Shown: positions 42,518-45,397 of the stretch, one piece after another
Layout: the number at the start of each line of letters is the position of its first letter
Numbering within the stretch: the first letter of the stretch is position 1
Assembly: GCA_051382295.1 (NCBI GenBank)
Contig: JBBCAW010000041.1
Span: 30,504-94,503, forward strand
Source of the DNA: Bdellovibrionota bacterium FG-1
GTDB lineage: Bacteria; Bdellovibrionota; UBA1018
Length of the DNA: 64,000 bases
Direction of reading: 5' to 3'
The notes under the pieces: generated by a model
What the model saw: only the letters and a program-made list of their open reading frames with translations
Told to the model about the DNA's origin: nothing
The model's database searches: none
Program-made: the position numbers and the translations under genes

Positions 42518-42787
42518 TTGACCTTCCTTCCTTGGAAGAGAGTGGTGGAAGGGAGCGGGCTTCCTGCCCGATCATTGCCTTCCTATTCTTAAGAATAAGG
42601 CTCTCTGCCAGAATGTGCAAGCTGTCGGGTAACTACCCGGATTTTGCCTCAGAGGAGGCCTACCCGCCCGTCAGGGCATTGACGTGGAATGCATAAGACA
42701 TCAAGGCAGCAAGAAAAAGGCCAAAGTGTCAAAATTAACACAGGGGTGGGTTTGACTCTCTTTGAAAAGCCAATCACAATAGTCATT

Positions 42788-43765
42788 ATGAGACGTGGCG
42801 CTGTAAAAAAGAGTCCCCCCGTAGAAAGAAGAAAAAAATCAAGAAACAAGGCACCCTCCAAGCTGAAGGCCGTGGGCAGCCAAGAGCATTGTGTCCATTG
42901 CTCGAAAGGACTCATTGGCGAGGAGCAGGCGCTGTTTGTTGAAGAAGAGATCAACCGGGTATTTTGCTCTGAGGCGTGTATTACGGGATATTTTGGACCC
43001 GAAATCGAACGGCTCGAAAAAGAGTACACGAGACGCTTGGTTCCCTCGGATCTTTCGGGTGAAGAAAGGGAACATCTCGCACACCTTCGCTTTATTACAC
43101 TGAAGGAGCCCGACGAGGTCTGGCGGGAAAAAACCCTGACGGGTGATTATCGGTATGTGATGATTGCAGAATTCCAACCCGGCAATCGCACTGTTTGGAG
43201 TATTTGTCTTTGTTTATTTCTTCATGGGGAGCCAAGCTTTCTGTTTATGGCCTTTACGACCAAAAACGCGGCTATGGTTAATGCCTACCGACGAGGAGAG
43301 CGAGTGGAGTGGGAACGAACGAGGAAGCGCAAACCAGCGGCAGAGGGAAATGATGCCGCTGCTCCCGAGGGGGTAAGCGATCGGCTTGCCGATGCGTGGA
43401 CTGAAGAAGAAACGTTTTTGGCTCAGGTCAATCAGGAACGCAAGGGGGATGATATTCCGCCGGAAGAGTTCGAAGCGTTTCAGAGCTGTATCGAGCAAAC
43501 CCTTGAAACCCCCGATGAAGTTTGGAGTATGGAACTCGCTGAAACCGAGGGGATTCATTTATACCATTTTATTAAACACTATTTAGATGAAAAAACGCCT
43601 TATTGGTATGTCATTCTGGCTCGCGAAACCGAGGATGAAGAGCAAATTGAAATCATCGATGCTTTTCCCACTCGCGATAGCCAGTTAGTAGAGCGCTACC
43701 GACGGGGGGCTCAAGAAGTAGGAGAGACTTCGGAGGAGCAGGCGATGGGAAGGGTGGTTCATTAA
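42788..43765 (+). CDS. Zinc-finger protein with two PBECR2-like (barnase/RelE-fold) repeats
   Basis: CVHC...FCSEAC, then TLKEPDEVW and TLETPDEVW repeats each followed by beta strands and AF(T/P)T; sigma70-like TTGACT-N17-CACAAT directly upstream. Confidence 0.6.
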   Translation: MRRGAVKKSPPVERRKKSRNKAPSKLKAVGSQEHCVHCSKGLIGEEQALFVEEEINRVFCSEACITGYFGPEIERLEKEYTRRLVPSDLSGEEREHLAHLRFITLKEPDEVWREKTLTGDYRYVMIAEFQPGNRTVWSICLCLFLHGEPSFLFMAFTTKNAAMVNAYRRGERVEWERTRKRKPAAEGNDAAAPEGVSDRLADAWTEEETFLAQVNQERKGDDIPPEEFEAFQSCIEQTLETPDEVWSMELAETEGIHLYHFIKHYLDEKTPYWYVILARETEDEEQIEIIDAFPTRDSQLVERYRRGAQEVGETSEEQAMGRVVH

Positions 43766-43768
43766 TCA

Positions 43769-44037
43769 CCCAACCGAGGCGCGCCCTCTGCCATGAGGGC
43801 TCCGGGTTGACTGGACAGCTGTACCCGCGAACCTCCTCTAGCTTTGGTCTAAGTGACTGGAAACAAAATCGATAAGAACAACCAGAAGTTTGCAGATCAG
43901 CAAAAAAAGTGCGGATCTGAACTTCAGTTCTTCACACCGACGCCGAGAAGAATAACGTGTTTGTTTATTCTTCATAAGGCACCTCTCTTTCTTTCGGGAA
44001 GGGAGGTGTTTTCCTTTTCACGCGCGCCTCGGTTGGG
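43769..44037 (-). ncRNA. Structured RNA of about 270 nt closed by a 16-bp terminal inverted repeat (candidate type I toxin mRNA)
   Basis: CCCAACCGAGGCGCGC (43769-43784) and GCGCGCCTCGGTTGGG (44022-44037) are a perfect IR; several internal hairpins. Confidence 0.6.
43838..43975 (-). CDS. 45-aa basic/hydrophobic peptide MKNKQTRYSSRRRCEELKFRSALFLLICKLLVVLIDFVSSHLDQS (putative type I toxin)
   Basis: GAGGTG SD just before ATG 43975; one TM-length hydrophobic stretch; below the ORF-track length cutoff. Confidence 0.55.
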   Translation of the reverse strand: MKNKQTRYSSRRRCEELKFRSALFLLICKLLVVLIDFVSSHLDQS

Positions 44038-44051
44038 CTGGCGTATCTCAA

Positions 44052-44067
44052 AGCAAAGTCAATGCCG
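44052..44067 (-). promoter_or_regulatory. sigma54 -24/-12 promoter for the structured peptide RNA
   Basis: Minus strand CGGCATTGACTTTGCT (GG-N10-GC); expected TSS near 44041, just before the IR arm. Confidence 0.6.
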
Positions 44068-44268
44068 TAACAAGGTGCAAAGATTCCCGGTTTTCAGGCT
44101 CCGGCGGTTCGAATTTCGAATTAAGGTACGGAATCCGGACTTGCTCACTGGCCGCAAATCCCCACAAACGTATCTAAAAGGTGACACCCCTCCGGTTTTT
44201 TCAAAAAGAAATCGGGCTGAATTAGCTTAAATTTCAGCTAGATAAGAGTTTTGACGGATTCTTGATTT

Positions 44269-44284
44269 CGGCCTCAGCCTTGCT
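44269..44284 (+). promoter_or_regulatory. sigma54 -24/-12 promoter, divergent from the previous one
   Basis: CGGCCTCAGCCTTGCT, followed by GAGGAG RBS and ATG 44313. Confidence 0.55.
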
Positions 44285-44312
44285 CATAGGTGCTTTCGAA
44301 AGAGGAGACACT

Positions 44313-44752
44313 ATGTTAAAGCTGAAACGAAATTTTCCACATAAAAACAATAGAATTACCCGGTTTATGATCTGCTCGAGAAATACCCCTGGCCTGGAAA
44401 TGTCAGGGAATTGCGTAATCTGGCTGAGAGATTGGTGATTTTATCCGGTGCTCAAATCGAGCCCAGGGACTTACCCTCCCACTTCTTAAAGTCTTTAGAC
44501 CCGACCACTGGGGCCCCTTCTGGGCAGACTTCGCTTCGTGAGTTTAAAGCTAGGTCTGAGCGGGCTTACATCGTTCAGACCCTGCAAAGCGTGCAGGGAA
44601 GTATCTCTCAGGCCGCACGGCTTTTGGATCTTGAGCGAACCTATCTTCACCGGAGAATTCAAGAACTGGGGATCGAAAAGAAGAGTATTTTTAGCGAAAT
44701 TTTCCGCTCGCAAAAGTGGGGCAAGAACCCAAATTGGCCGTTTGTAAATTAA
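44313..44752 (+). pseudogene. Truncated NtrC-family enhancer-binding protein (AAA+ lid + Fis HTH only), frameshifted relative to its ATG
   Basis: YPWPGNVRELRNLAERLVIL and ISQAARLLDLERTYLHRRI lie in a frame with an upstream TAG at about 44350; RBS/ATG 44313 is in another frame. Confidence 0.75.
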
Positions 44753-45275
44753 AGCCAGCCTGTTGCAAACACCAGTTCATATTAGGTTGATCGGCCTCAG
44801 ATACGATCATGGCCGCATTGTAATTAGTGGATACGAACGAAAATTTCATTCCAGCGGGATCGTAGCTCACGCAGATCGACATCGCTTTTCCGCCCTGATC
44901 CAGCTTGGGGTAAGCATGGGTTGAATCGACCACATCGACAGGATAGAGACAAACTTTAGGCACGCCCTGGGACGAGTCAGCTTGGTAGGGTTTACCATAA
45001 ACCAAAATGTCCGAGGCAGTCACGGTTGATGCGCAGACTTGATAGGTATTACTCAAATCCGCACTGTAGCTCGACCCCACCTTGGGCTTTACGTTGGCTT
45101 GGGCGGGACAGGTGTAATTGGTTTGCTCAGGGTGACCGCCGTTGGAGCTAGGATCAGCAGAGACCGTCTGCGGTAATTGATAGGATTCTGAGCTTACAGT
45201 TAGATTAGGATTGGGGGCCATGCCGCAACCACTGATCAACAAAGCTAAACTCAATACATAAAAACTGGTTTTCAC
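44691..45275 (-). CDS. Cys-rich lipoprotein, hypothetical
   Basis: Lipobox LISGC; AAGGAG RBS; sigma54 motif upstream. Confidence 0.75.
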   Translation of the reverse strand: MKTSFYVLSLALLISGCGMAPNPNLTVSSESYQLPQTVSADPSSNGGHPEQTNYTCPAQANVKPKVGSSYSADLSNTYQVCASTVTASDILVYGKPYQADSSQGVPKVCLYPVDVVDSTHAYPKLDQGGKAMSICVSYDPAGMKFSFVSTNYNAAMIVSEADQPNMNWCLQQAGFNLQTANLGSCPTFASGKFR

Positions 45276-45318
45276 GGGGGCCTCCTTTTCTTGAATGGAT
45301 GCTATGCGTTATTTATAA

Positions 45319-45334
45319 AGCAAAGGCTGTGCCG
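45319..45334 (-). promoter_or_regulatory. sigma54 -24/-12 promoter
   Basis: Minus strand CGGCACAGCCTTTGCT. Confidence 0.7.
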
Positions 45335-45397
45335 CATGAAGCACGAATTATTATTCAATGATTTAAGCGAGTTAAATAAACCTATTCGACCCAAACC

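Follow-up and report, generated by a model that had tools for sequence, protein, structure and literature searches.

In the 64,000-nucleotide stretch of DNA analysed here (the window), a short minus-strand locus combines a sigma54 promoter motif, a long-range inverted repeat and a 45-aa ORF. It raises the question of whether a type I toxin-antitoxin-like unit may be placed under sigma54 control, as an earlier note on this DNA had proposed. We consider it probable that the locus belongs to an undescribed type I toxin-antitoxin-like family, whose two halves would depend on opposing sigma factors.

The locus and its genomic setting

All sequence features described in the earlier note were recovered on the minus strand where it had placed them, among them the perfect 16-bp inverted repeat, the 9-bp stem at the start codon, the 45-aa ORF and the GGAGGT that follows the stop (Table 1). 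The whole 4.4-Mb genome contains five perfect 16-bp inverted repeats spaced 200-300 nt apart. The window copy is flanked by a PBECR2-domain gene and by the remnant of a sigma54 enhancer-protein gene. The former (42689-43765, plus strand) is conserved, being present in 14 of the 17 loci compared from relatives; its 358-aa product has a zinc-finger-like motif at the N-terminus, and two of its stretches resemble the PBECR2 nuclease. The latter (44340-44752, plus strand) is a C-terminal remnant comprising the AAA lid and a Fis-type HTH; it lies within the inserted segment, and its closest relative in the genome is 31% identical.

The peptide family is absent from all 17 of these relative loci. In seven of them the PBECR2 gene lies tail to tail with a 194-aa ORF gene at a distance of about 60 nt or less, and one locus shows a gap of about 960 nt after the PBECR2 gene. 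The corresponding gap is 925 nt in the window, which makes the window copy a lineage-specific insertion. The 194-aa lipoprotein-like gene of the window has a strong sigma54 motif of its own (45275-45350, minus strand), with one weak match to the upstream site of the family.

Table 1. Features of the window copy, with positions in the window
Feature	Position	Strand	Basis or score
Distal palindromic upstream site, predicted enhancer-protein site, starting at about -100	44126..44140	-	12.8 bits
Proximal palindromic upstream site, starting at about -80	44107..44121	-	15.3 bits
Sigma54 -24/-12 promoter motif, GG-N10-GC	44067-44052	-	sequence motif
Predicted peptide mRNA of about 275 nt, ends inferred	43765..44041	-	fold and homology end
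Terminal stem P1, 5' arm, 16 bp perfect	44037-44022	-	covariation
Terminal stem P1, 3' arm, 16 bp perfect	43784-43769	-	covariation
Hairpin H1, GGA in loop, possible CsrA site	44006..44021	-	covariation
Anti-SD/SD hairpin, constrained on both strands	43980..44008	-	pairing, G-U counts
Anti-SD	44008-44002	-	sequence
SD	43985-43980	-	sequence
ORF of the 45-aa cationic peptide with one hydrophobic helix, putative toxin	43975-43838	-	
Start-codon hairpin, 9-bp stem	43947..43973	-	sequence
FliA (sigma28) -35 box motif, embedded in ORF	43922..43930	+	matrix score
FliA (sigma28) -10 box motif, embedded in ORF	43942..43950	+	matrix score
Predicted antisense RNA, U-rich single-stranded 5' tail then 17-bp hairpin, ends inferred	43957..44018	+	
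Post-stop purine tract GGAGGT	43836-43831	-	sequence
Near-invariant GGGURCAGC motif in 3' UTR hairpin	43818..43826	-	
Last 3' UTR hairpin before the 3' arm	43784..43799	-	fold

Copy number and distribution

A single-sequence protein search returned the query alone, and the homologs were found by profiles. An iterated profile run against the 32,416 small ORFs of the genome retrieved 26 peptides, all preceded by a strong SD and all with E below 1e-16; the E-values jump from 3e-17 for the weakest of these paralogs to 0.79 for the next match. At the DNA level, a profile identified 25 full-length units on 15 contigs, besides a unit with an internal deletion and two halves, one of them 3' and the other 5'; several units are arranged in tandem with a spacing of 429-453 nt. 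The earlier note had envisaged paralogs with compensatory changes in the terminal stem, and such paralogs are indeed present.

Beyond this genome, the profile matched 18 of the 75 genomes of the taxonomic family, a second count within the same rank giving a patchy 14 of 59, and 21, then 23, of 401 genomes of the phylum. All phylum matches fall into one order save one, which has an E-value of 7e-4 and lies inside a 321-aa frame; two further weak matches inside long frames are likewise doubtful. Named homologs are limited to hypothetical proteins of Bdellovibrionota FG-2 and Oligoflexia. FG-2 is placed in UBA1018 and called potentially predatory in PMC13200544, and the host lineage and lifestyle are deduced here from that placement.

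The window region produced no Rfam match close to a gathering score, PyrR being the best with 22 of 54 bits, and eight family loci gave no match. The peptide has no match in Pfam or NCBIfam families, and no family fits among its best matches in PHROGs (E 0.04) or in the Atlas (0.86 for an unnamed entry, 0.79 for TisB). No sequence homology to any of the known type I toxin families searched was detected, and the family was not found in viral contigs, phage or plasmid collections. On these sequence comparisons the family appears to be real, undescribed, restricted to one order and multicopy. Its units are neighboured by unrelated housekeeping or unknown genes and a few type II toxin-antitoxin-like genes. 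A leader or attenuator of a fixed downstream gene was ruled out, the neighbours of 17 loci being unrelated and in any orientation.

Sigma54 promoter motif and upstream sites

The sigma54 motif proposed for the window copy is a property of the whole set: all 26 copies of this genome carry GG-N10-GC, with 86-93 nt between it and the ATG, and stem P1 begins 29-31 nt downstream of its first base. Exact GG and GC were found in 71 of the 88 copies with a placeable promoter, out of 111 collected; the -12 box served as the alignment anchor, and the independent part of this count is the -24 side, where G occupies the two positions in 72 and 85 of 88. The transcript had been supposed to start at the 5' arm of the inverted repeat. 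The arm is in place, and the start, which from the -24/-12 geometry we take to be near 44041, falls 4 nt before it.

Upstream of the motif the family carries a 15-bp palindrome, starting mostly at -100 and -80. With a matrix trained on 61 copies of other genomes, which was also used to score the distal site of the window copy, a site above 8 bits was detected in 22 of the 24 copies of this genome, compared with 3.75% of shuffled sequences. Two sites lie 18-20 nt apart in 31 of the 36 copies in which both score above 5 bits. Family copies occupied the top 20 ranks of a genome scan for the sigma54 motif plus the upstream site, a partly circular result in that the sigma54 matrix included family copies. 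The genome encodes rpoN and about 25 full-length enhancer proteins, among which no activator of the family promoters was picked out. No sigma70-like site (0 hits), and no housekeeping TANNNT promoter, was found in 43600-44400.

Two sigma54 promoters outside the family match the upstream palindrome well and may be further members of a regulon (G000:C14:7417-7830 and G000:C5:5970-6290). One of the two lies ahead of an unknown gene of 90 aa that has another copy of the palindrome at its flank.

A covarying mRNA fold and a hidden ribosome site

For the 286-nt minus strand a folding energy of -119 kcal/mol was calculated (z = -6.56), which none of 200 shuffles matched, and homology among the paralogs stops just past the 3' arm. 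Of the 74 full copies, 55 were aligned to assess the fold, after removal of near-identical paralogs and of rows whose anchors were doubtful. In this set the 14-bp terminal stem P1 is 97.8% paired with two-sided changes at 11 of 14 pairs, H1 is 88.6% paired (3 of 4) and the SD stem 86.1% (5 of 8). The whole structure is 92.8% paired versus 81.8% when shuffled, a contrast inflated by the relatedness of the copies, and 36-58% when slid. These compensatory changes bear out the 5'-3' pairing that had been read from the inverted repeat of the window copy. The perfection of the repeat is peculiar to that copy, the others having 13-15 pairs with G-U and mismatches. Over 50 rows (five rows of the window's subfamily being excluded for a register shift), the G-U pairs of P1 number 41 when the mRNA strand is read and 2 for the opposite strand, indicating an RNA helix and not DNA ends.

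The proposed sequestration of the SD is also borne out. The SD hairpin is paired, and opening the ribosome site costs a median of 14.2 kcal/mol in 83 copies versus 8.0 in 200 control genes, 47% of the copies lying above the control 95th percentile. The mRNA would therefore combine SD sequestration with 5'-3' pairing, a lock of the aapA/IsoA and hok/Sok type. The ORF folds on itself as well. Its start-codon hairpin has a mean pair probability of 0.3-0.6 in the 55 copies, and the loop of this hairpin is the hypervariable, indel-rich part of the family.

The mode of unlocking suggested by the earlier note did not hold up. A purine tract follows the stop in 77 of 85 copies, and had been thought to capture the anti-SD and so release the SD; it is the weaker partner of the anti-SD (-9.0 versus -14.9 kcal/mol for the SD) and is better than or equal to the SD in 6 of 73 copies. 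Unlocking by 3' trimming fared no better: the opening cost stays at 14-18 kcal/mol at each of ten 3' ends tried, the start codon included (22 copies, at equilibrium), and activation by 3' processing is therefore not supported. Forcing H1 lowers the opening cost from 14.6 to 10.0 kcal/mol (45 copies), partly by construction. H1 is minor at equilibrium, with a pair probability of 0.02-0.24, and we infer from these folding models that it marks the translatable form.

For the GGGURCAGC motif of the 3' UTR no covarying partner was found, and it may represent a protein or nuclease site. A pseudoknot between the RCAGC loop and the 3' arm was rejected, the arm varying in position while the loop is constant.

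The peptide

The 85 intact copies, from 20 genomes, encode peptides of 40-53 aa with a median charge of +7. A hydrophobic 19-mer scoring above 1.6 is found in 75 of them and a Lys or Arg at mid-helix in 78, and the predicted model of the window peptide is a single helix spanning residues 5-44 (pLDDT 78). By sequence and model, the product is a small hydrophobic peptide with one membrane helix, as in type I systems, and is likely membrane-damaging.

Conservation of the peptide, on which the first interpretation of the locus depended, is supported by signs of purifying selection, with a dN/dS of 0.48 over 26 disjoint close pairs, whose synonymous sites are themselves constrained, and pS exceeding pN in 25 of the 26. 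A ratio no lower than this, together with a strong nucleotide-level constraint across the ORF, would also suit a functional product that is RNA acting in trans, the ORF being a passenger shaped by promoter and folding constraints. Such RNAs could be paralogous FliA-dependent small RNAs, with a precedent in the sigma28-dependent ncRNA paralogs of Campylobacter that are aimed at sigma54 transcripts (PMC4626219), or the folded sigma54 RNA could serve as a CsrA sponge. We regard this as improbable. The strong SD, the invariant ATG, the maintenance of 40-53 codons, the Leu that is invariant in 85 of 85 rows and the excess of pS over pN all argue for translation; moreover, each RNA offers one or two GGA sites and no more, and the anti-SD of the antisense RNA lies buried inside a 16-bp hairpin. 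A selected, translated peptide remains our preferred reading.

An opposite-strand FliA promoter motif embedded in the ORF

The best-conserved residues of the peptide coincide with an embedded promoter motif. The Arg codon is CGG in 73 of 85 copies, the preceding codon ends in T in 82 of 85, and the conserved codons read TTAAG-N15-CCGAT on the opposite strand. This pattern also occurs in three of the six flagellin leaders of the genome, in which fliA is present, and in B. bacteriovorus 92 of the 140 attack-phase promoters bear TTAAG-N16-CCGATA (PMC3627812).

A FliA matrix was grown from two flagellin seeds on the intergenic DNA of the genome, with the family masked. Its best opposite-strand site fell at the homologous place in the 85 copies, 22-43 nt from the ATG. 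The mean score was 15.4 bits, versus 5.2 for synonymous recodings and -0.3 for the sense strand, and p was at most 0.05 in 62 of 85 copies (12.2 bits and p 0.03 for the window copy), per-copy values that are overstated because the copies share ancestry. The -10 box scored above recoded controls in 85 of 85 copies and the -35 box in 78 of 85, with no indel between the boxes in 85 rows. The top base agrees with the FliA matrix at 10 of 10 informative positions, and at least 12 bits were reached by 65 of 85 family copies as compared with 0.55% of 2000 ordinary genes. From these sequence data a chance origin appears unlikely, even if the motif is counted as a single ancestral event.

The bases of the -10 box pair with the start-codon region in the mRNA too, so that part of its conservation may have another cause, and a third-position bias runs along the entire ORF. 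Conservation is correlated with promoter information over all 29 positions (rho 0.50, p 0.006); for third positions alone the correlation is not significant (rho 0.51, p 0.13, n 10). The same matrix picks about 40 promoters in the genome, which mostly precede secreted or unknown proteins and are not flagellar alone, as reported for Bdellovibrio.

The predicted antisense RNA

An antisense RNA over the initiation region had been proposed from the plus strand. The proposal is strengthened at the sequence level by the FliA motif, a promoter motif for such a cis-encoded RNA that the earlier note had not seen, and loses the conserved intrinsic terminator on which it was built. The plus-strand SD hairpin had been read as this terminator; a scan of 43600-44400 found no terminator-like site, and at most 4 U occur in the 8 nt after the antisense hairpin in 76 of 76 copies, with no canonical U tract.

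The RNA predicted from the FliA motif has a family median of 64 nt to the hairpin end, with a 24-nt tail and 16 pairs. Its single-stranded tail would lie against the first codons, and the RNA would cover the start codon and the SD. A tail plus a hairpin is the shape of Sok RNA. In 63 of 76 copies it is the antisense strand that gives the better fold of the leader. The G-U pairs of the SD hairpin number 39 for the mRNA and 43 for its antisense counterpart, and such two-way wobble pairs are expected if both strands are transcribed.

A possible CsrA layer

The genome carries csrA beside fliW, in the order flgK-flgL-csrA-fliW as read from ORFs, and csrA is present in 22 of the 23 family-positive genomes. 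In its family form, H1 has a 4-bp stem and an ANGGAN loop, the hairpin form described for CsrA sites (PMC4894983). Its perfect version was counted in 48 of 83 leaders of the family; among the flagellin leaders it is found in 4 of 6, and among genes at large in 43 of 3363. By analogy with the flagellin leaders, CsrA may bind H1 and so add a second lock. Of all the layers proposed, we are least sure of this one, because the GGA of H1 pairs within the antisense hairpin as well, so that CsrA is not needed to explain it, and because the window copy has a variant H1 with a 3-bp stem and a 10-nt loop.

Broken copies and the question of mobility

Among 106 loci, 50 partial profile matches were counted. 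In 17 of these a 5' part is left and the break does not coincide with a contig end; for 16 of the 17 it falls at or after the embedded promoter, pieces that the search favours. Such losses are at most suggestive of a peptide toxic to its host. A group II intron with RT and maturase domains lies within a peptide gene (L106:1101-3027, on contig G071:C317). In a second locus of that genome, G071, the intron's 3' end recurs at an identical site (L125), where many G071 copies break, which suggests that a group II intron homes into the peptide family. Two copies of the G069 genome (L094:1600-2200 and L103) are cut at the same junction by the same IS-like sequence with HTH domains. The intron and the IS-like element account for some of the broken copies. 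The unit thus also resembles a selfish element in its behaviour, multiplying through duplication and frequently ending up broken.

The earlier note had itself offered a MITE as the alternative. In such a mobile element, which is non-autonomous, the terminal inverted repeats would serve as transposase ends. The unit does recur, in many dispersed and tandem copies, and seven relatives have both flanking genes tail to tail with the unit missing, as such an element would predict. Yet it recurs without a target-duplication signal, the longest shared word being 4.9 versus 4.7 in mismatched pairs. Moreover, the conserved unit reaches 100 nt past the 5' arm to include the promoter and the upstream sites, and the arms keep G-U pairs on one strand only. 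The MITE reading, to which we give very little credence, is largely refuted by these sequence patterns.

A more serious alternative accepts the two-promoter switch and takes the peptide for a phase-specific small membrane protein and not a self-toxin: it might regulate a membrane enzyme, or else be directed at prey or serve in exit, in many variants. The dedicated enhancer sites would fit such a role, as would the first 20 ranks held by the family in a genome scan whose matrix included its copies, the up to 25 divergent copies per genome, and a lineage called potentially predatory (PMC13200544). The patchy presence of the family is better suited to a dispensable, self-maintaining unit than to a core life-cycle gene, and the unrelated neighbours, the empty site in relatives and the many broken copies point in the same direction; stacked translation locks are, in addition, typical of toxin mRNAs (PMC5416894, PMC9841398). 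We consider this alternative rather unlikely, and retain the type I-like reading.

Comparison with known systems

The layout of the unit matches aapA/IsoA closely and hok/Sok in part. By this analogy it would work like a type I system, and is a candidate member of that class. Like aapA/IsoA of Helicobacter, it is a multicopy chromosomal unit that encodes a small peptide, its mRNA is locked by SD sequestration and 5'-3' pairing, the antisense promoter, predicted in our case, lies within the peptide coding sequence, and copies are inactivated by insertion or rearrangement (PMC5416894). In contrast, aapA/IsoA shows no sequence match to the present family, its peptide has 30 aa as compared with 40-53, and the IsoA1 promoter has a TATAAT box, whereas the present family has a sigma54 motif with twin upstream sites and sigma28 motifs; aapA/IsoA also unlocks by 3' processing, a step not reproduced by folding here (PMC5416894). 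With hok/Sok the unit shares fold-back 5'-3' inhibition of a stored mRNA and a short antisense RNA, again predicted here, to the initiation region (PMC9841398). However, no mok-like leader peptide was seen in the present family and no Pfam match was obtained, hok has a TANNNT -10 promoter (PMC9841398) whereas no sigma70-like site was found here, and the phage, plasmid and viral collections searched do not contain the family.

Other parallels concern regulation. In Campylobacter, the sigma28-dependent RNAs CjNC1/CjNC4 and FlmE/FlmR act on, or are balanced against, sigma54-dependent transcripts; these small RNAs act in trans on flagellar genes, whereas the present pair is cis-encoded and involves a small membrane-type peptide (PMC4626219, PMC11187230). 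The CsrA-FliW control of flagellin mRNA likewise has a GGA in a hexaloop upstream of the SD (PMC4894983), the difference being that the predicted target here is a toxin-like mRNA.

The type I systems compared, aapA/IsoA and hok/Sok, use housekeeping-type promoters (PMC5416894, PMC9841398). Among the records listed from a largely open-access literature, no type I system under sigma54 or sigma28 was found, nor any in Bdellovibrionota. The new element would thus be the predicted wiring, with enhancer-dependent sigma54 for the peptide and sigma28 for the antisense RNA. What comparison of the copies brings to this picture is the copy number, promoter motifs on both strands, a covarying stem, a calculated SD lock and the apparent selection on the peptide.

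Proposed mechanism and implications

We propose that the mRNA of a likely membrane-damaging peptide would be transcribed by sigma54 with an enhancer protein and would fold tightly, and that this primary mRNA would be stored in an untranslatable state, the minor fold, in which H1 is formed and the SD stem shortened, being the translatable form. FliA would make the antisense RNA of about 64 nt from the promoter inside the ORF, and this RNA would block and destroy the mRNA. Its 5' tail may enter through the variable loop of the start-codon hairpin, in which case each copy or subfamily would have its own antitoxin. CsrA on H1 would provide a second lock. If FliA is taken to mark the swimming phase, as in Bdellovibrio, both locks would be on in swimming cells, and the peptide would therefore be made only when the enhancer fires and FliA is silent.

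A broader version of this scheme, which we put forward tentatively and hold to be doubtful as it stands, is a gate on the life cycle: a dedicated sigma54 enhancer regulon, consisting mostly of about 25 peptide genes, that is silenced by FliA antisense RNAs and CsrA-FliW when the cells swim. If true, a cocktail of membrane peptides would be released only while the enhancer is at work and the flagellar programme shut down, and these peptides would kill or leave the prey, or arrest cells that fail to enter the motile phase.

Finally, the family offers a new peptide and RNA fold in more than 100 naturally occurring versions. It also gives an uncultured order a defined enhancer site, and its parts are testable in laboratory E. 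coli or Bdellovibrio. If the proposed wiring is correct, toxin and antitoxin would be coupled to sigma factors that oppose each other, including the one that drives the Bdellovibrio attack phase, and the family would allow a direct test of whether chromosomal type I modules serve development, beyond selfish persistence.
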